Shown piece by piece: positions 1-7,114 of a stretch of 7,114 bases of DNA. The stretch is from a virus (taxonomy: Duplodnaviria > Heunggongvirae > Uroviricota > Caudoviricetes). The DNA is taken from the IMG/VR virus record IMGVR_UViG_3300019374_000122, positions 1 to 7,114 of that record. One strand, written 5' to 3'. Under the pieces are notes generated by a model. That model saw only the letters and a list, made by a program, of their open reading frames with translations, did not search any database and was not told where the DNA came from. The translations under genes were made by a program, and so were the position numbers. Every line of letters begins with the position of its first letter. Within the stretch, counting starts at the first letter, position 1.

Positions 1-140
1 CCCCACCCCACCACCAATGGCAACAGAAAGCGATTTAGGCCATCCGACATACTCAAGCGCGGATGCAAAGGGCAAAGTCAGAGCGCCACATAGCAAAATC
101 TCGAGCGTTTTTTGCTTCCACCCCCCACCACCGACAATAA
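1..140. repeat. Direct repeat copy 1 (about 96% identical to 322..461, offset 321 bp); holin 3'-region sequence
   Basis: Base-by-base alignment of 1-130 with 322-451 shows 5 mismatches; identity decays over 131-140. The 321-bp offset is a multiple of 3. Confidence 0.9.
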
Positions 141-243
141 CATCATAACCGTGGTTACGTGTCGGTTGTCGCCCGTTATCCGTTCCTTCTGACCATGCAA
201 CCATATCCAGGAAAGCTTTACGCTGGGAATTTAGTACCTGCAT
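1..243 (-). CDS. Endolysin (lambda R-type lytic transglycosylase) 5' portion, fused in-frame after codon ~39 to a diverged copy of the holin 3' region; ORF runs off the window at position 1
   Basis: ATG at 243..241, with AAGGAG at 250-255 six nt upstream and directly after the holin stop. Translation MQVLNSQRKAFLDMVAWSEGTDNGRQPTRNHGYDVIVGG closely matches the N-terminus of phage lambda R as I recall it (MVEINNQRKAFLDMLAWSEGTDNGRQKTRNHGYDVIVGG...). It then continues GGWKQKTLEILLCGALTLPFASALEYVGWPKSLSVAIGGGVG, which is holin sequence. No stop codon before the window edge. Confidence 0.6.
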   Translation of the reverse strand, partial: MQVLNSQRKAFLDMVAWSEGTDNGRQPTRNHGYDVIVGGGGWKQKTLEILLCGALTLPFASALEYVGWPKSLSVAIGGGVG

Positions 244-246
244 AAA

Positions 247-582
247 TTACTCCTTCGAGCTACCAAACTTGTTACCGATTACTCTCATTGCAGCCCCACG
301 AATAGCATCGACACCGATCAGCCCCACCCCACCACCAATGGCAACAGAAAGCGATTTAGGCCATCCGACATACTCAAGCGCGGATGCAAAGGTCAACGTC
401 AGAGCGCCACATAGCAAAATCTCGAGCGTTTTTCGCTTCCAGCCACCACCACCGCCAAAATAGGCGATGCGCAAACCAGCCATAACAATCGACATAATCA
501 CTGCGCCCAGCGGCGTATCTCCACGCCACCAGCTCTGAAACAACTCCAGCCAGTCCGGCCAAGTATTTGGGTTATGAGGCAT
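247..582 (-). CDS. Holin, phage lambda S family (class I, three predicted TM segments)
   Basis: Translation from ATG 582..580 (MPHNPNTWPDWLELFQSWWRGDTPLGAVIMSIVMAGLRIAYFGGGGGWKRK...GVDAIRGAAMRVIGNKFGSSKE) aligns in pattern with lambda S (…AMAYLRGRYNGGAFTKTV…IGTDSIGSLIKRFAAKKAG). It sits immediately upstream of, and is translationally linked to, the endolysin start. The track's longer ORF begins at an in-frame GTG at 678, inside the methyltransferase C-terminus, which I consider unlikely as the start. Confidence 0.8.
   Translation of the reverse strand: MPHNPNTWPDWLELFQSWWRGDTPLGAVIMSIVMAGLRIAYFGGGGGWKRKTLEILLCGALTLTFASALEYVGWPKSLSVAIGGGVGLIGVDAIRGAAMRVIGNKFGSSKE
322..461. repeat. Direct repeat copy 2, lying inside the intact holin gene
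   Basis: Same alignment as copy 1; this copy is embedded in the complete holin ORF. Confidence 0.9.
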
Positions 583-658
583 TTCGTCATCTCTCACCTC
601 GCGATATTTGCGGGTGCTGTGTTGGAAATAAAAAGGCCACGCAACGTGGCCACCAGAA

Positions 659-1710
659 TTATTTCCCCACCAGTTCACTTACCTCTTTCACCGTCTGATT
701 AAATCGCTCTGACTCAAGTTCAACACCTAACGCCCGACGCCCCAGCGCCATTGCCGCTTTTATTGTGGAACCGGATCCCATAAGAAATCAGCAACCAGAT
801 CGCCTTGTCGACTACTGGCACTGATTATTTGCCGGAGCATATCCGCAGGCTTCTCACACGGATGTTTACCCGGGTAGAACTGAACGGGTTTATGCGTCCA
901 GACGTCGGTATAAGGCACGGAAACTGATACGGAGAAATAGCGCCGGAGAGTTTTAAACTCATCCAGCAATTCAGAATATTTGCGATTCAGTGAATCATAA
1001 GATGCCACCAGCTGGTGGTGTGGTTGTTCCAGTTGTTGTTCCTGAAATTTCTCTGCCGCTATACGGGAAAACAGTGCCTGCAACTTCCGGTAGTCAGCCT
1101 CATTCGGCAACTGCCACTGACTGGCACCAAACCAGTGGGAAACCATATTTTTCTTACCTGTGGCTTCGGCAATTTGTTTTGCCGTTATACCCAGTTCGGC
1201 ACGAGCATCCCTGAAATACGATATCAGCGGTGCCATTATGTGCTGTTTGAGTTCCCTTTCTTTTGCCGCATAGCCGTCACTTTTGCCGCGATATGGCCCC
1301 TGGTAATGTTCAGCAAACAGAACGCGCTCTGTGGCAGGAAAATATGCGCGCAGACTTTCTTTATTACACCCATTCCAACGTCCGGACGGCTTCGCCCAGA
1401 TGATATGGTTAAGCACGTTGAAACGTTCACGCATCATGATCTCAATATCAGATGCCAGGCGATGCCCACAGAACAGGTAAAGGCTTCCGGCAGGTTTCAA
1501 CACCCGCCAGAACTGGGCCAGACAGTGGTCCAGCCACTTAAGGTAATCTTCGTCCCCTTTCCACTGATTGTCCCAGCCGTTGGGTTTCACCTTGAAGTAC
1601 GGCGGATCGGTAACAATCAGGTCAATGGAATCATCAGGCAGGGACTGAATAAAATGCAGGCAATCAGCGTTGATTAAATCAACACTGTTTATTTTTACAG
1701 TATTTTTCAT
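659..1710 (-). pseudogene. Beta-class DNA methyltransferase (N6-adenine/N4-cytosine, DPPY motif), disrupted by a 1-nt frameshift just before the C-terminal FxGxG AdoMet-binding motif
   Basis: The ORF 760..1710 carries IVTDPPYF near the N-terminus and ends ...DLVADFLWDPVPQ*. A different frame from ATG 781..779 reads MGSGSTIKAAMALGRRALGVELESERFNQTVKEVSELVGK*, with stop at 661..659, which is the canonical motif I and C-terminus. A single missing base around 782-790 would restore one continuous ORF. Confidence 0.75.
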
Positions 1711-1860
1711 GGATCAGTAAGCGTAACTCTGGTAGGCTCACTCTGCTTTTGCGCTAAAGCAGTGGGCCGTGGTTCGCTTGTGACCAGTAGGCATGAGCGA
1801 ATGGCTGGCAGGTGCTACCAACACCCACCAGCCGCCCATTTTCACAGCAGGAAACCGCCA

Positions 1861-2064
1861 TTACTGGCAGCGTCTGAATTTATTCCCGTACCCGCCGTTA
1901 TCCTTCGCCAGACCCGCCAGAACTAACTGAGTCAGTATTAACTGGCACCGGGCTTCGCTTACTCCGGTAGTTCTCGTCATCATGCGTGGCGTTACCCACT
2001 TGTCAGCAGGTAAGAAATGAAGGACTGCGGCGGCGGTTTCTGTCATATCTTGCTGTTTTAGCAT
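1861..2064 (-). CDS. Small hypothetical protein (67 aa), possibly DNA-binding; function unknown
   Basis: ATG at 2064..2062 is preceded by AAGGGA about 7 nt upstream on the minus strand. Translation: MLKQQDMTETAAAVLHFLPADKWVTPRMMTRTTGVSEARCQLILTQLVLAGLAKDNGGYGNKFRRCQ. The track ORF extends to a GTG at 2148 with no RBS. Confidence 0.4.
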   Translation of the reverse strand: MLKQQDMTETAAAVLHFLPADKWVTPRMMTRTTGVSEARCQLILTQLVLAGLAKDNGGYGNKFRRCQ

Positions 2065-2185
2065 GTTTTTTCCCTTCTGGTTAACATGACATACCAATAA
2101 CTCTTGTCTAAAAAGCCAGCAAGATAAAAAGCCAGTATTCACGACCACCAGCGTGTTTACTGTACTGCACCAGGTTTACAGGTAC

Positions 2186-2207
2186 AAAAAAACCGCTCAG
2201 CGGCGGG
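2186..2207 (-). terminator. Candidate intrinsic terminator for minus-strand transcription (short GC hairpin followed by U7)
   Basis: Minus-strand RNA reads cccgccgcugagcgg followed by uuuuuuu (plus-strand A7 at 2186-2192). The stem is only 4-5 bp, so this is weak. Confidence 0.3.
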
Positions 2208-2287
2208 TTTAAGTTGTGTGGCGAAGTAACCACTCTTAACAGATTACAATGTTTTTTGCGGACCGCGCTAATGATTTCCTCTTTTTT

Positions 2288-2317
2288 TTGTTGTATTTTT
2301 CACACGGTTGCTAAAAT
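2288..2317 (+). promoter_or_regulatory. Candidate sigma70 promoter for the plus-strand island (-35 TTGTTG, 18-nt spacer, -10 TAAAAT), preceded by a T-rich tract
   Basis: TTGTTG at 2288-2293 and TAAAAT at 2312-2317, with a T-rich UP-like tract at 2281-2300. The implied leader before ATG 2333 is very short, so the exact start site is uncertain. Confidence 0.35.
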
Positions 2318-2332
2318 TATTTCGGATCGATA

Positions 2333-3274
2333 ATGAGTACAGAAAATAAGAATAAAACTAGGCGAGTGAGAGTTGGTTTTTTCACTGGTAATGGAAGCAA
2401 AAAAGATGGCACATCTGCTGCAAAACTAGCCTTTGAGCAAATGACCACAGCAGATACTGTAACTTTTCCAATAACTTACACAACAGACACCCCAAATCGA
2501 GGGTTAAAGTTAGTTATTCTTCAAAAAGATACCACACTGCAATGTTACTTTGGTTACGTATCGTGGAGAAGGGAATGCCTACTACCGTTCATCGAGGATG
2601 CTACAGGTAGTGAGAGAACAATTCCTTTAAATGATAAAGATTCTGTAGTTGAAAGAACATATTTTATCTATTACTACGAAACGGATTTATTAGCTATGAC
2701 CCTCAACCATATAGGGCCCAAAGTAAATGATCTGGCATTCATTTTGTATAACAAAACTGATTTAAAAAGCGTCACTTTTGAAGCCATTTGGAAACAAGAG
2801 AGCATGAAGGAACTGCTTGAGGACGGAAATATCCTACGTAGTTTCGATCTTATAGTTGCTGCTCCAAGAAACTTTAACAAAGCTAATTATAAGATTAAAA
2901 ACCCTTTAGCTAATGAAATTATTGACATGGTTGTTGGTATGGGCGGGTCGCATCTAAGATTAAATATGCGAGGTCGGATTCGCCCGAAAAAACAAGGTTT
3001 TAACTATCTAAAAACTTCTGTCACCGATGCTATTAAGGAACTACTTGAACTTTTTCCAAAAGGTTCTGGAGGTCTAAAAATTAAAAAAATTGATGTAACA
3101 GAGCCATCCAATAGAACGCCCAAAAGTCTACTTGACCAAGTATTGGTCAGTACAAAGACAATCATTGTCAAAAGCGGTTATCCATCCGATTCTGATATCA
3201 GAACGGCGATGATATCTGCTAAAATTGATAACGCGAACTATCTTGCACAGTATGAGCTCGCTAGCAGAGACTAA
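2333..3274 (+). CDS. Hypothetical soluble protein (313 aa), first gene of the AT-rich island; candidate sensor component of a phage-exclusion/abortive-infection module
   Basis: Long uninterrupted ORF in an AT-rich segment (about 38% GC in a 100-nt hand count at 2333-2432, against about 48% at 4201-4300 in the flank). No Walker A, DPPY, HNH or other motif that I recognise. Its stop is 22 nt from the RBS-led start of the membrane-protein gene. Confidence 0.8.
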   Translation: MSTENKNKTRRVRVGFFTGNGSKKDGTSAAKLAFEQMTTADTVTFPITYTTDTPNRGLKLVILQKDTTLQCYFGYVSWRRECLLPFIEDATGSERTIPLNDKDSVVERTYFIYYYETDLLAMTLNHIGPKVNDLAFILYNKTDLKSVTFEAIWKQESMKELLEDGNILRSFDLIVAAPRNFNKANYKIKNPLANEIIDMVVGMGGSHLRLNMRGRIRPKKQGFNYLKTSVTDAIKELLELFPKGSGGLKIKKIDVTEPSNRTPKSLLDQVLVSTKTIIVKSGYPSDSDIRTAMISAKIDNANYLAQYELASRD

Positions 3275-3295
3275 TAACCAAGCATGGAGGACACA

Positions 3296-3745
3296 ATGAG
3301 AGAATTAGCCACTTTTCTCTGGAAATGCGTCCTCTGGATTCTGTTGACCTATGCAGCGACAAAACTGTTTAAACCGATGAAGCATGCTGACGTACTCACA
3401 ACAGCGGGGGTGCTCTCGACTATATCAGGCATCCTGTTTGGTTTTGTTCTGGCTGCAATATCTATATTTAGTAGTGCAAACAGCGATAAGGAAGGAGCAA
3501 TTAATGCCCTTAAGCAAAACAACGTGTTACCAACTCTGGTAAATCGATTACTTTCAACAGGGTTAACTCTCATCGTCGCATGTATATTTCCATTGATAGC
3601 GATGTTTCTACCAGATGATGTTATTGTTGCGGGCAAACCTATTGATTTCCTATTCATACTGTTAGGCTTATCCTCCCTTATAATTTCGCTATATACCTTC
3701 GGAAGGTGTTGGTTAGTGTTACGAAAAATCTTCCCCCACTTGTGA
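3296..3745 (+). CDS. Small integral membrane protein (~149 aa, four predicted TM helices); candidate effector of the island
   Basis: GGAGG at 3286-3290 lies 5 nt upstream of ATG 3296; an alternative ATG at 3284 has no RBS. Four hydrophobic stretches: LATFLWKCVLWILLTYAATKLF, VLTTAGVLSTISGILFGFVLAAISIF, LPTLVNRLLSTGLTLIVACIFPLIAMFL, PIDFLFILLGLSSLIISLYTFGRCWLVL. Confidence 0.8.
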   Translation: MRELATFLWKCVLWILLTYAATKLFKPMKHADVLTTAGVLSTISGILFGFVLAAISIFSSANSDKEGAINALKQNNVLPTLVNRLLSTGLTLIVACIFPLIAMFLPDDVIVAGKPIDFLFILLGLSSLIISLYTFGRCWLVLRKIFPHL

Positions 3746-3774
3746 CAGGTTGGCCTCATATGGGGCCAACCTGT
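3745..3774. terminator. Perfect 11-bp inverted repeat (acaggttggcc / ggccaacctgt) with 8-nt loop, between the convergent island and Q; likely bidirectional stem-loop terminator or insulator
   Basis: Left arm 3745-3755, right arm 3764-3774, loop tcatatgg. It overlaps the stop codon of the membrane-protein gene and lies 7 bp from the Q stop. There is no adjacent U-run on either strand. Confidence 0.5.
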
Positions 3775-3780
3775 GCAACC

Positions 3781-4149
3781 CTAAGCGTCCATTTCAAGGT
3801 TAACATCCAACATTGAAAGGCAACCATCAATAAATCCTTCGGCTAGTTGTATTTCTATGCGTACCAATTTTTCATCCTTTCCACGCACCTTTGCAATCTT
3901 ACGCTTGGATATTCTGTATAAATAATGTGCCACAAGCAGCGAGTGCTCATCTGGCTTTTTTTGCTTTAGACGAGCAAGACAACCTTCAATAATTAATGCA
4001 TCACTATCTGAACAAGCCTGACGTGTTTTGCTTGTGTAGGGAAGAAGCCCCTTAAACCCAGCAGCTATAGGCGAATAGTCTACTCCAGAACTATCACTCG
4101 CCGCCCATGCTCCCCAACGCTCCAGAACCATCTGAATATCACGCATCAA
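3781..4149 (-). CDS. Late-gene antitermination protein Q (phage 82/21 QuuD-like family)
   Basis: Translation MMRDIQMVLERWGAWAA... matches the N-terminal signature of QuuD-type Q proteins as I recall it (MRDIQMVLERWGAWAA...). GGAG lies 7 nt upstream of ATG 4149. Position upstream of the lysis genes fits. Confidence 0.85.
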   Translation of the reverse strand: MMRDIQMVLERWGAWAASDSSGVDYSPIAAGFKGLLPYTSKTRQACSDSDALIIEGCLARLKQKKPDEHSLLVAHYLYRISKRKIAKVRGKDEKLVRIEIQLAEGFIDGCLSMLDVNLEMDA

Positions 4150-4163
4150 CTTTCTCCACCAAA

Positions 4164-5159
4164 TCAGGCCAACACACCAATCGCCAGCGCGCGATCGATA
4201 AAACGAAATATCAGCTCCAGTTGGGAGCCATACTTCTCTTCAAATGCCACGGTATCCGCATGCAGCTCGTCGTGATGCTTTCTGCACAAAGGCAACACAA
4301 AGAGGTCATGCGCTTTTGTACCCATTCCACCCTGACCGTGACCTATCAGGTGGTGGGGATCATCAGCAGGCTTTCCACAACATGCACACGGCTGTGTCTT
4401 AACCCAGCGCGTGTACTTTTCATTAACCCAGCGGCGGCGTTTTGGGCGTAACATAAAAGACTCCGGCGACTCCGGATCCACTTTCAGCGCCAGCACCTTT
4501 TTCGCCTTATCCTGGATGATGCTGGTGGCAGGAACCGAAGGCACAAGGTCACTTTCCCGGGTGACAGACGGCACAACAGGCTTCGGTAATCTCAGTGCCT
4601 TACGGGCTGCACTTTCCGGTAAGGCATCTGCCAGATCATTACGAATCAGCCACCAGCACAGTTCCGGCATTGTCACAACGTGACTATCATCAAAACCGAG
4701 ATCCCGACGCACAACAGACAACACCCAGCGGGCACAGTTATCCGTTGCCATTGATTCCAGCCGTTCCGTGAACTGATCGCGAAGCTGGTTATCGCAGTGC
4801 CAGCACAGACGGATTGCGCCCGGCGCGTGTCGCATTGTGGTCATGTTCTCGCTGTGCCAGTCGGAATGAGGCCACTGGCAGCCTTTTTCACGAAGTAACC
4901 AGCTTTCAAGACATTCCACCCCACCAGCACGACGAATCACTGCCTCATTACGGAACACGGCCAGAACGGCAGGATCATCCGCCAGCGGTTGTGATGCCGC
5001 AGGAACGGCACCACTGGCGAAAGATGAATAACGCTCCGGCTCAGGCTCCAGCAGAACACGGCCCTGCATAAACAGGGGCATCAGCTCTGAACCTGGCCTG
5101 AACAATACGATCCCCATACGCGGGGCAATTTCAGGGGTCAGTAGTGCTCTCACGGTCAC
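4164..5159 (-). CDS. DUF968-like prophage protein with C-terminal Cys/His-rich (HNH-like) motif; start codon uncertain
   Basis: 331-aa ORF; C-terminus PCACCGKPADDPHHLIGHGQGGMGTKAHDLFVLPLCRKHHDELH. The track start is a GTG at 5159, one nt after the KilA-N stop, with no clear RBS; internal ATGs are alternative starts. Confidence 0.65.
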   Translation of the reverse strand: MTVRALLTPEIAPRMGIVLFRPGSELMPLFMQGRVLLEPEPERYSSFASGAVPAASQPLADDPAVLAVFRNEAVIRRAGGVECLESWLLREKGCQWPHSDWHSENMTTMRHAPGAIRLCWHCDNQLRDQFTERLESMATDNCARWVLSVVRRDLGFDDSHVVTMPELCWWLIRNDLADALPESAARKALRLPKPVVPSVTRESDLVPSVPATSIIQDKAKKVLALKVDPESPESFMLRPKRRRWVNEKYTRWVKTQPCACCGKPADDPHHLIGHGQGGMGTKAHDLFVLPLCRKHHDELHADTVAFEEKYGSQLELIFRFIDRALAIGVLA

Positions 5160-5160
5160 C

Positions 5161-5970
5161 TCAATGAACGGTATCGAGCAGCTTTAACAGCTCAGTGAAT
5201 CGGGATTCGAAGAAATGCGGCTGCGTCTCGCGCGGATTTGCAGGACTGGTGATGTTCTTGCCGAACATGCAGCCTTTCGCCGTCAGCGACCAGAATTTTT
5301 TGATGTTGTTAATCGCTGTACGGCTGTATCGTTCGCGCTGTTCGACGATCCCCAGCTTCGCCATCTGGTGATATGCCTGATTAGCCGTCAGGCGGATACC
5401 ATACTGCTTCAGCAGTGCACTCAGTGACAGCGTGGGGCGGCTTGAGCCATCAGGCGCGTCAGCAGGAACATCAATGGCATAACGCGGTGCCAGATTCGGT
5501 AAGCCAACAGCCTCCTGGAGTTTCTGACAGGCCCCAAGCACAGATGAGTTAGACAGATTTAACTCCCGGCGCATAAAGTCCAGCAGAATCACGCCAGCCT
5601 GCATCTTGTCAGCAGCCTGTCCGGATAACTTTTCCGGCGCGCTGGTTACCATATCGAAAGTACGGATCACCTTCAGATGGAATGACGGGCTGATCCACAT
5701 TGCATAGGCATACACCAGTTCCTTACAGACATACGTTCCCCGTTCATTTCCCCCATGAATCACACTAACTGGGTCAACACCCAAATTCTGGGTGTTGATT
5801 AATTCATGAACAAGATCAACAGTTTGTTGGCTGGAAAGAAACTTTCCTGGCTCCTTGGTTCTGGCATTTGCACCAGATGCTACTGCTGCGCGATGCAGAT
5901 CGTTCAGGCTGTAACGCTCATAAGCATCACGACGAACTTCAATACCATCAATGACCATCAGATTATTCAT
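5161..5970 (-). CDS. KilA-N domain protein (Roi/antirepressor-like DNA-binding protein)
   Basis: N-terminus MNNLMVIDGIEVRRDAYERYSLNDLHRAAVASG... fits the KilA-N pattern. ATG 5970 is preceded by GAGGGG about 8 nt upstream. Confidence 0.7.
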   Translation of the reverse strand: MNNLMVIDGIEVRRDAYERYSLNDLHRAAVASGANARTKEPGKFLSSQQTVDLVHELINTQNLGVDPVSVIHGGNERGTYVCKELVYAYAMWISPSFHLKVIRTFDMVTSAPEKLSGQAADKMQAGVILLDFMRRELNLSNSSVLGACQKLQEAVGLPNLAPRYAIDVPADAPDGSSRPTLSLSALLKQYGIRLTANQAYHQMAKLGIVEQRERYSRTAINNIKKFWSLTAKGCMFGKNITSPANPRETQPHFFESRFTELLKLLDTVH

Positions 5971-5989
5971 ACTTCGTTTCCCCTCTTAA

Positions 5990-6379
5990 TCAGGCAGCTG
6001 CACCCGCCGTTTTCTCGTACTTACTGATAGTGATCTCGACCTTCCCTTCCGGGATAACCGGTCCCCACTCCACCAGCATTCTTTTCACCTGACTGTCGTC
6101 TTCCCACACCCCCGCGTGGGTCAGGGCGTCAAACAGCGCCTTGTTATAGTTGTCCAGATCGCGGATCCTGTTATCCGGAGGAAACAACACGATCTCCACT
6201 GAAGCAGGTGCCGACGTTGGTTTCGGCAGACGACGTAACTGCTCAACTATTGCTGCGCACGCCGCGCTCTGGAATTTTCGCCCCGCCGCGCTTATCAGGC
6301 TCTTACCAGCAAACGCCCCTTTGTTGGGGTGTCGCCAGTACGTGTTCACGCTGGGCGGAAAAGGCAGGATCAGCTTCAT
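5990..6379 (-). CDS. rusA: Holliday junction resolvase RusA
   Basis: MKLILPFPPSVNTYWRH...RIRDLDNYNKALFDALTHAGVWEDDSQV matches the E. coli RusA pattern (PWPPSxNxYYRH...[28 protein letters not shown]), including the catalytic Asp cluster. Its start overlaps the upstream stop as ATGA. Confidence 0.9.
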   Translation of the reverse strand: MKLILPFPPSVNTYWRHPNKGAFAGKSLISAAGRKFQSAACAAIVEQLRRLPKPTSAPASVEIVLFPPDNRIRDLDNYNKALFDALTHAGVWEDDSQVKRMLVEWGPVIPEGKVEITISKYEKTAGAAA

Positions 6380-6702
6380 ACTTTCAGGCCCCTCTCATGT
6401 AACCAGTGGGTTGCACGCAGCCTTGCGTTTTCCTCACCGGCAAGCAGTGAGCGGATAATCCCGACCGCCTCGCTGTCGTCGTCCTTCACCGCGGTATGAA
6501 GCGTGATGCCCCGGGCCACGCCACGCTTTATCGTGATGACGCCTTTTTTCTCCAGTGCGCGAAGATGCTCCACCGCTGCATTCACTGAACGGTATCCCAG
6601 CATGGTTGCCACCTCCTGATTGGTTGGCGGGAAGCCACGTTCTTTCTGATAAGAAATCAGCATATCCAGCACCTGCTGCTGGCATTGAGTTAACGTCGTC
6701 AT
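6376..6702 (-). CDS. LexA N-terminal DNA-binding-domain homolog lacking the S24 peptidase domain (108 aa)
   Basis: From ATG 6702..6700: MTTLTQCQQQVLDMLISYQKERGFPPTNQEVATMLGYRSVNAAVEHLRALEKKGVITIKRGVARGITL aligns with E. coli LexA residues ~4-68 ([65 protein letters not shown]). No Ser/Lys protease domain follows. The start overlaps the upstream stop as TAATG. Confidence 0.8.
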   Translation of the reverse strand: MTTLTQCQQQVLDMLISYQKERGFPPTNQEVATMLGYRSVNAAVEHLRALEKKGVITIKRGVARGITLHTAVKDDDSEAVGIIRSLLAGEENARLRATHWLHERGLKV

Positions 6703-7052
6703 TAAGCCCCCACGTAATTCCCTGACAGATACCACTCATCACCCGATGCAGCGCGCTTGCTGCTTTTCCGTAAGCACCGCTCACGACGCGCAAGAAAATT
6801 GTTTCGCTCTTGCTGGGAGTGGCTTTCACGGAATGCCGCCATCCACACCGTTGCAGCACGACGGTATAAGCCCCTGGACTCCAGTTCTTCCGCCTGGCGG
6901 GTCAGGCACAAAATCTCCCGCGGGTCGTTAGTGCCGACATAGAAATTGCGCACAGGTCTGGTTTCACGAACTGGTTGCGGTTCCGCCTCCTGCGCTCTCT
7001 CAGTCAGGCGCGGGAAATGTCTGCGTGTATCCCCTTCACAACGGTGAGCCAC
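6702..7052 (-). CDS. PerC-family-like regulator domain; true start uncertain because the frame stays open to the window edge
   Basis: AEELESRGLYRRAATVWMAAF...ERNNFLARRERCL resembles the PerC/Pch pattern (AExLExxGxWRRAAxxW...RRxxCL). The track start is a GTG at 7052, and the same frame has no stop between 7053 and 7114. Confidence 0.55.
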   Translation of the reverse strand: MAHRCEGDTRRHFPRLTERAQEAEPQPVRETRPVRNFYVGTNDPREILCLTRQAEELESRGLYRRAATVWMAAFRESHSQQERNNFLARRERCLRKSSKRAASGDEWYLSGNYVGA

Positions 7053-7114
7053 ACGACCACTCTGACGTAACTTGCTTGCTGACTGCAGAACGCGCTGCCG
7101 TGAGTAACCTGCAA

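Follow-up and report, generated by a model that had tools for sequence, protein, structure and literature searches.

A candidate RexAB-type phage-exclusion gene pair beside the Q gene of a lambdoid prophage

Phage lambda's RexAB system was the first abortive-infection system to be described. To our knowledge, its trigger and its activation step are still unexplained, and the question of how it senses infection is 70 years old. Five Rex-type systems were counted in a 2026 paper on P. putida (PMC12894663), and none of them belongs to the family of the gene pair described here, which we refer to as the DUF6731 pair. This pair, genes A and B, lies in a stretch of 7,114 nucleotides of DNA from a virus of the Caudoviricetes (IMG/VR record IMGVR_UViG_3300019374_000122, positions 1 to 7,114; the whole stretch is called the window below). 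The source is a lambdoid prophage, of which the window reads the reverse strand, with the phage genes on the minus strand. Gene A (2333-3274, plus strand, from the list of open reading frames, ORFs) encodes a soluble, basic protein of 313 amino acids (aa; pI 9.3), and gene B (3296-3745, plus strand) encodes a membrane protein of 149 aa with four transmembrane (TM) helices.

We propose that this two-gene island is probably a prophage-borne phage-exclusion (abortive-infection) cassette of the RexAB type, and it is on this basis that we infer a role in defence. Four features agree with the RexAB type, namely the fold of A, the architecture of B, the order and linkage of the two genes, and their carriage by prophages. 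We regard the pair as a very divergent member of this known type, and a cryptic one at the level of sequence.

The two proteins and their linkage

Genes A and B are genuine conserved genes and not chance ORFs, because both have strong PHROG matches (phrog_7651 for gene A, E = 5e-146; phrog_8552 for gene B, E = 1.7e-44) and full-length homologues with 45-88% identity across the Enterobacterales, in Escherichia, Citrobacter, Serratia, Yersinia, Salmonella, Pectobacterium, Xenorhabdus, Proteus and others. An earlier note on this DNA had described two adjacent plus-strand genes, for a soluble protein and then a four-TM protein, and both ORFs are present with this support. The two are also inseparable. 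Using hidden Markov models (HMMs) built from both families, we found a B-like ORF directly downstream of the A-like ORF at 21 of 21 loci with an A-like ORF, several of which had not been used in building the models, so the recurrence of the pair at other loci, which the earlier note had left to be checked, is confirmed. The genes are on the same strand with the soluble gene first, they are inherited together, and the spacing between them varies from an overlap of 44 nucleotides (nt) to a gap of 25 nt. The loci include lambdoid prophages (three variants in E. coli, and others in Pectobacterium, Yersinia, Citrobacter and Xenorhabdus), a Mu-like context with GemA and Mor, an integrated tectivirus-like Vibrio element, and metagenomic relatives with about 17-29% identity, several of which have overlapping A and B genes. 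The best matches of A and of B in the BFVD database are to proteins of the same uncultured virus, ctylc9. The adjacency of A and B is strict across very different mobile elements.

The pair is thinly spread. When a profile of A was run against 1.84 billion representative proteins, no more than 171 clusters came out at E <= 1e-3, which makes the A family small and sparse. A scan of species-representative genomes found only two loci, which indicates that the family is sparse accessory cargo. Among 5,426 complete E. coli genomes, approximately 115 (about 2%; 72, 18 and 25 for the three variants) carry the pair, and it is also present in the CDT-I toxin-converting phage (cdtI) and in two sequenced coliphages. 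Gene A is annotated as 'portal (connector) protein' in the coliphages vB_EcoS-733R5 (locus L027, 2977-3918) and vB_EcoS-716R3, which is almost certainly a mis-annotation in both. An integrated, tectivirus-like element of Vibrio cyclitrophicus (10N.286.54.F4_PE001, Vinavirales; locus L026, 1389-2896) has an A-like and a B-like gene directly after its integrase.

Scans of both window proteins against Pfam, NCBIfam and PADLOC returned only noise (DUF4064, MusI and LIC_10202), far under the cut-offs, and protein A itself falls below the reporting threshold of the Pfam family DUF6731 (PF20505). Its relatives do reach that family: 19 of 29 homologues with 45-62% identity to A match DUF6731 (best E = 1e-11), orf54 of cdtI reaches 41.4 bits where the cut-off is 27, the E. 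coli variants of A are labelled 'DUF6731 family protein' in RefSeq, and a profile of the clade to which A belongs recovers DUF6731 proteins. Protein A can be placed on these matches as a divergent DUF6731 member, by transitivity rather than by its own score. The near-invariant positions in an alignment of 89 DUF6731 proteins include the polar residues R80, E94, E107 and N125 in the numbering of the window protein, which could contact a ligand or DNA, or could mark an unsuspected active site; the family scans detected no catalytic domain in A, nucleases included.

The structural model of A, which is of moderate confidence, has RexA as its nearest fold neighbour, with RdgC second (7.3), followed by CHL4 (7.3), IML3 (7.2) and CENP-N, the human counterpart of CHL4 (7.0); RexA was returned by one structure-comparison method only. 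The model has the two-domain arrangement of the RexA/RdgC fold, and protein A is predicted to have a fold of this type. RdgC, IML3 and CHL4 are also the structural neighbours published for RexA (PMC11077077), matching the neighbours of A. The best match of A in a Foldseek search of BFVD was the ctylc9 protein (E = 1.4e-14, TM-score 0.63). Searches of Protein Data Bank (PDB) sequences, both with the single proteins and with the 89-sequence profile, found only chance matches to eIF2-alpha and phosphatases.

Protein B resembles RexB in size and architecture. Its AlphaFold2 (AF2) model has four long helices with a predicted local distance difference test (pLDDT) score of 80, and the hydropathy plot agrees, in keeping with the earlier description of B as a four-TM membrane protein of about 149 aa. 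RexB is 144 aa long, and its hydrophobic segments (3-30, 41-69, 80-122 and 112-137) are placed much as those of B (4-22, 33-64, 80-114 and 108-138). The most conserved part of B is its second helix, AGVLSTxSGILFGFVLAAISIFSS, and the central loop that follows it is also conserved, with L72 and K73 invariant. B thus has the form of the RexB type, a small four-TM protein of about 145 aa with a conserved central loop. In the BFVD search its top two matches, both with weak E-values, were a 172-aa protein of ctylc9 (TM-score 0.60) and a 165-aa protein of mycobacteriophage Sbash (TM-score 0.53). The RexB-like effector encoded by Sbash gene 31 is also 165 aa long, and the BFVD entry may be this protein.

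One member of the B family bridges the two groups. The B protein of the Vibrio element, which belongs to the same family (E = 1e-39 with the B-family HMM), matches the PADLOC RexB profile with E = 1.6e-4, and its residues 9-104 align with profile positions 7-103, that is, nearly the first three helices in register. It is the only family member that reaches this profile and should be a useful bridging sequence. When the B family was aligned to the RexB family with hhalign, the same register was recovered (P = 0.007, but just 5% probability). The architecture and weak, register-consistent sequence signals suggest, without showing, that B is homologous to RexB.

Weak matches to a PADLOC candidate system, PDC-M67, and one published label point in the same direction. 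Six of 89 A-like members match PDC-M67A (best 7e-4) and 4 of 29 B-like members match PDC-M67B (best 1e-3), the window proteins not being among them; such concordance between A and B is unlikely to be accidental, and it points to PDC-M67 as a probable distant sister of the pair. In Table S5 of the DefensePredictor study (PMC13092281), as we read its columns, the Halomonas protein UniRef50_W7QHW3 has the label 'RexAB~RexA' alongside a Pfam match to DUF6731 (probability 99.8). The suggestion in the earlier note that the island might be an undescribed system is therefore set aside in favour of the known RexAB kind, given the DUF6731 label of its relatives, the weak PDC-M67 matches and this DefenseFinder-derived link to RexA.

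A cargo slot between Q and the late leader

At every lambdoid locus, the pair is directly downstream of a PF06530-type Q gene and convergent with it (loci L004, L006-L011 and L027). In the window the Q antiterminator gene is at 3781-4149 on the minus strand (PF06530, E = 7.7e-52), and the pair faces it, between Q and the methylase and holin genes, so the convergent placement between Q and the lysis genes that had been noted before is upheld. The other border of the slot is a conserved non-coding block of the phage backbone (approximately 2186-2266, minus strand). It contains the palindrome GCGGACCGC (2258-2266), the motif TGTTAAGAGTGG (the complement of 2231-2241) and, at 2203-2186, the short hairpin CCGCTGAGCGG with a run of seven T after it, which the scan called terminator-like. 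The block is common to phages with different cargo or with none (cdtI, PhiR40_1, phiP27 and mEp460), and variants of its motif are also found in the Pectobacterium, Yersinia and Xenorhabdus loci. It is a candidate for the Q-dependent late promoter, or Q site, with the leader terminator. If it is the late promoter, the cargo slot lies between Q and that promoter, and the candidate promoter of gene A diverges from it.

The contents of the slot differ among phages. PhiR40_1 has a lipoprotein-like gene there and mEp460 an unrelated gene for a protein of 308 aa. In the Stx2e phage phiP27 the same slot holds gene L22 (locus L014, 3095-4324), annotated as hypothetical, which encodes a T5orf172/MUG113 protein of 408 aa; this protein matches the PADLOC profile for PD-Lambda-1, a validated defence system, with E = 2e-89. 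Judged by its gene content, the slot is a variable cargo site, with the pattern expected of a hotspot for defence genes or morons, and it is a place in lambdoid phages in which to seek further defence cargo.

The G+C content of gene A is 37.4% and that of gene B 41.3%, compared to 50.0% in the left flank (1-2148) and 54.4% in the right flank (4150-7114). The island is AT-rich relative to these flanks, as previously claimed, but the low-GC stretch continues into the Q gene (43.4%).

The earlier note had given the pair its own candidate promoter and a stem-loop on either side; the first is still a candidate, and the second claim stands in part. A consensus promoter scan called none. Reading the sequence directly, we found a candidate promoter at 2288-2317 on the plus strand, with an extended -10 element, TGCTAAAAT (2309-2317), and a weak -35-like TTGTTG (2288-2293). 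The -10 element is 15 nt before the ATG of gene A, and a promoter at this position would leave a very short leader. Comparable TG(A/C)TA(A/T/G)ATT motifs are found 5' of gene A in five variant loci (L004, L006, L011, L027 and L002). We regard TGCTAAAAT at 2309-2317 as a candidate promoter of gene A. A second, exact copy of it is present at 3217-3225 on the plus strand. This lies within gene A, at its 3' end, 70 nt upstream of gene B. This internal copy is identical in five of the six variant loci that retain the SAKI peptide, the Ser codon differing in one of them, and the A proteins of these variants are only about 45-48% identical to that of the window. The internal copy could be a promoter for B only, for which lambda PLIT, the internal promoter of a second gene, provides a parallel, or it could equally reflect codon bias.

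Of the two bracketing stem-loops, the one at the 3' side is strong. It lies between the stop codons of B and Q (approximately 3745-3778, with the core GGTTGGCC...GGCCAACC at 3748-3771) and has a folding energy of -27.1 kcal/mol on the plus strand (z = -5.1) and -21.4 kcal/mol on the minus strand (z = -3.3); lacking a U-run, it does not qualify as a canonical intrinsic terminator. The hairpin at the 5' side (2193-2203) is weak, and the T-run that goes with it is on the minus strand. We rejected this left-hand stem-loop as a boundary of the island, because it is part of the backbone that is conserved among the phages and it faces the minus strand.

The translation start that we use for gene B is the RefSeq ATG at 3296, which has a GGAGG Shine-Dalgarno sequence, read from the DNA, 5 nt upstream (3286-3290, plus strand); the ORF list gives 3284-3745 (153 aa), from an alternative upstream ATG at 3284. 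The remaining genes of the window are all on the minus strand: a lambda-family holin gene (247-678), an N6/N4 DNA methylase gene that is frameshifted in the window (760-1710) and a small phrog_331 gene (1861-2148) to the left of the pair, and a DUF968/HNH gene (4164-5159), a KilA-N gene (5161-5970) and RusA (5990-6379) beyond Q.

E. coli strain 1283 has an identical island, carried by a prophage that looks complete and is integrated at tRNA-Thr beside proA. Both island genes are annotated there as 'hypothetical protein' in RefSeq. The cI-like gene of this prophage is about 5.6 kb from the pair; the pair has Q on one side and the late leader on the other, both of them on the opposite strand. 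Compared to strain 1283, the window has one A fewer in an A-run at about position 781, within the methylase gene (659-1710, minus strand), which splits a DNA methyltransferase of 350 aa into ORFs at 760-1710 and 659-781; either the gene is a frameshifted pseudogene or the missing A is an error of sequencing. The window also has a direct repeat of 137 nt (1-137 and 322-458, 96% identity), by which its left end repeats part of the holin gene at the place where strain 1283 has the start of a lysozyme gene, and the two sequences are identical from about base 126 on. Either the lysis cassette has been rearranged here or the repeat is an artefact of assembly.

Proposed mechanism and rival explanations

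By analogy with the lambda, Sbash, CarolAnn and P. putida systems, we infer that A binds DNA and dimerises, that it activates B, that the membrane is depolarised, that the pair is expressed in the lysogen and that other phages are excluded. Protein A, like RexA, would probably be a dimeric, non-specific DNA binder with a DNA-clamp fold. It would sense an infecting phage through a protein or through a replication or recombination intermediate, and the activated A would activate B, which would then compromise the inner membrane by depolarisation or leak, with the result that growth stops and the infection is aborted. Transcription of the pair would start at a promoter of its own and run counter to the early-right and late operons, so that the two proteins would be made in the lysogen. 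Because it is convergent with the early-right operon, antisense transcription would cross it after induction, when convergent antiterminated transcription through Q would probably damp it, and such antisense read-through would be a simple way of silencing the system during the prophage's own lytic growth.

Several observations weigh against a RexAB-type cassette. Neither the window protein A nor any of its 29 and 89 relatives matches the RexA profiles of Pfam (PF15969) or PADLOC (PDLC02339), even at permissive E-values, and the profiles work, as lambda RexA scores 1e-97 and 9e-110 on them. With hhalign the A family has no significant similarity to lambda RexA (P = 0.018-0.12), the register of these non-significant alignments being constant (A residues 98-162 with RexA 81-147), and none to Sbash gp30. 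Similarly, window protein B does not match the RexB profiles (PF15968 and PADLOC PDLC02340), both of which recognise lambda RexB, and hhalign shows no significant similarity of the B family to lambda RexB, to an alignment of the RexB family or to Sbash gp31. Lambda RexA and RexB are absent from the top 50 BFVD matches of A and B. Small four-helix membrane proteins match each other easily by chance, and single B-like members weakly match other profiles of such proteins, for example KwaA (0.0016) and ZorA. The lambda arrangement, in the immunity region and co-transcribed with cI, is also lacking: the pair is about 5.6 kb from the cI-like gene and beside Q. Proximity to cI does not define the wider Rex type, however, because the Sbash, Butters and P. 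putida systems depart from it too. Lastly, RexA also acts outside defence, in the switch between lysis and lysogeny (PMC11077077).

A bolder form of the RexAB-type proposal, which we consider possible though doubtful, is that DUF6731 and four-TM proteins make up a large and as yet unrecognised sister clade of lambda RexAB, a self-contained cassette that moves among lambdoid, Mu-like and tectivirus-like elements and has its own triggers, and whose expression in lambdoid phages is wired to the late switch. In that case the promoter of gene A would abut the palindrome GCGGACCGC, a possible Q-loading site of the late promoter, and an internal promoter might let B outnumber A in lytic growth, so that the phage avoids aborting itself. 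It would also mean that a second natural and tractable E. coli Rex system is available for the question of how infection is sensed.

The strongest of the rival explanations, which we nevertheless think unlikely, takes up the non-defence role of RexA. It holds that A is a RexA/RdgC-like DNA binder that serves the phage's own cycle, by biasing lysis and lysogeny or in recombination, with B as its tether or modulator and exclusion incidental or absent. The RexA fold with RdgC as its second match and the basic pI of 9.3 would suit such a protein; RexA acts on the bistable switch without RexB, and exclusion has been queried as a by-product (PMC11077077); and some lambdoid phages do have RdgC homologues (locus L006; PMC12315714). 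What this explanation accounts for poorly is the behaviour of the pair as a unit, which retains its membrane partner at all 21 loci, is distant from the immunity region, and moves into Mu-like and tectivirus-like elements with different regulatory circuits. In other phages, moreover, its slot holds defence cargo.

If A and B do form an exclusion cassette, their roles could be the reverse of those proposed above, as in gp30/gp31 of mycobacteriophage Butters, with A as a toxic or antiviral effector that B sequesters and silences until infection. One of the five Rex-like systems works in this way, whereas the membrane protein is the effector in the other four (PMC12894663). The candidate internal promoter would permit an excess of B over A, and the near-invariant R80, E94, E107 and N125 could mark an active site in A, but no nuclease or other catalytic domain is detected in that protein, and the most conserved part of the pair is the second TM helix of B, as would be expected of an effector that lines a channel. 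We judge this reversed logic to be quite improbable.

Least probable of the three, and in our estimation very unlikely, is an accessory pair unrelated to Rex, in which B is a membrane protein that excludes superinfection or blocks injection, with A as its helper, or the two modulate the lysis cassette, the RexA fold being coincidental or ancestral. The location between Q and the holin and endolysin genes, the lack of a significant sequence match to RexA or RexB, and the weak matches of single B-like members to KwaA and ZorA are in its favour. Against this, the pair and the lysis genes are on opposite strands, the pair is also found in elements with different lysis systems and positions, for example beside the integrase in the Vibrio element, and the concordant matches of A and B favour Rex or PDC-M67 and not the holin or superinfection-exclusion (Sie) families. 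We rejected a plain lysis-cassette accessory for its opposite strand and its occurrence beside unrelated lysis modules.

The RexAB-type reading has consequences beyond this locus. It would give the Pfam family DUF6731, to which no function is assigned, a probable one. Rex-like systems escape standard profiles, and because the PADLOC models for RexA and RexB miss the pair, the defence content of prophages would be undercounted. With a second family of the Rex type at home in E. coli lambdoid prophages, direct comparative genetics would become possible in the best-equipped host. In the literature that we searched, there is no main-text mention of DUF6731, PF20505, PDC-M67 or the RefSeq and GenBank accessions of these proteins.

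Comparison with described systems

Kiwa also combines a small four-TM protein (KwaA) with a soluble protein of about 310 aa (KwaB, DUF4868), and its KwaA profile is weakly matched by one B-like member. Protein A, in contrast, has no match to DUF4868 or KwaB, and the island has the soluble gene first whereas Kiwa has the membrane gene first. We rejected Kiwa on its gene order and the lack of DUF4868.

Other described Rex-like pairs are Sbash gp30/gp31, CarolAnn gp44/gp43, Butters gp30/gp31 and P. putida RexABpp (PP_5643/5644). As with genes A and B, a prophage encodes a soluble and a four-TM protein, and it is mainly by fold and architecture that such pairs are recognised. They differ from the island in their hosts and in the kind of evidence behind them: they have experimental defence phenotypes, whereas the island is known from sequence and models. 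Sbash gp30/gp31 has no detectable sequence similarity to A and B, but it shares with them the displacement of the pair from the repressor and the order of soluble and then membrane gene with a short gap or overlap, the overlap being found in distant relatives of the pair.

Lambda RexA/RexB (PDB 8TWQ; Pfam PF15969 and PF15968) is the reference for the type. It differs from the pair in having no significant sequence similarity to it, in the length of its soluble protein (279 aa for RexA, 313 aa for A), and in its position, as rexAB is downstream of cI in the PRM transcript whereas genes A and B are beside Q and convergent with it. The layout in the two is the same: two genes on one strand, the soluble one first, then a short gap and a four-TM protein of about 145 aa, in a temperate lambdoid phage of E. 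coli. The length and helix positions of B agree with those of RexB, and a possible internal promoter recalls PLIT. The resemblance to lambda RexA/RexB for which the earlier note had argued is strengthened by the size and four helices of B, by the inseparability of A and B at 21 of 21 loci, and by the PD-Lambda-1 homologue that occupies the same slot in another phage.

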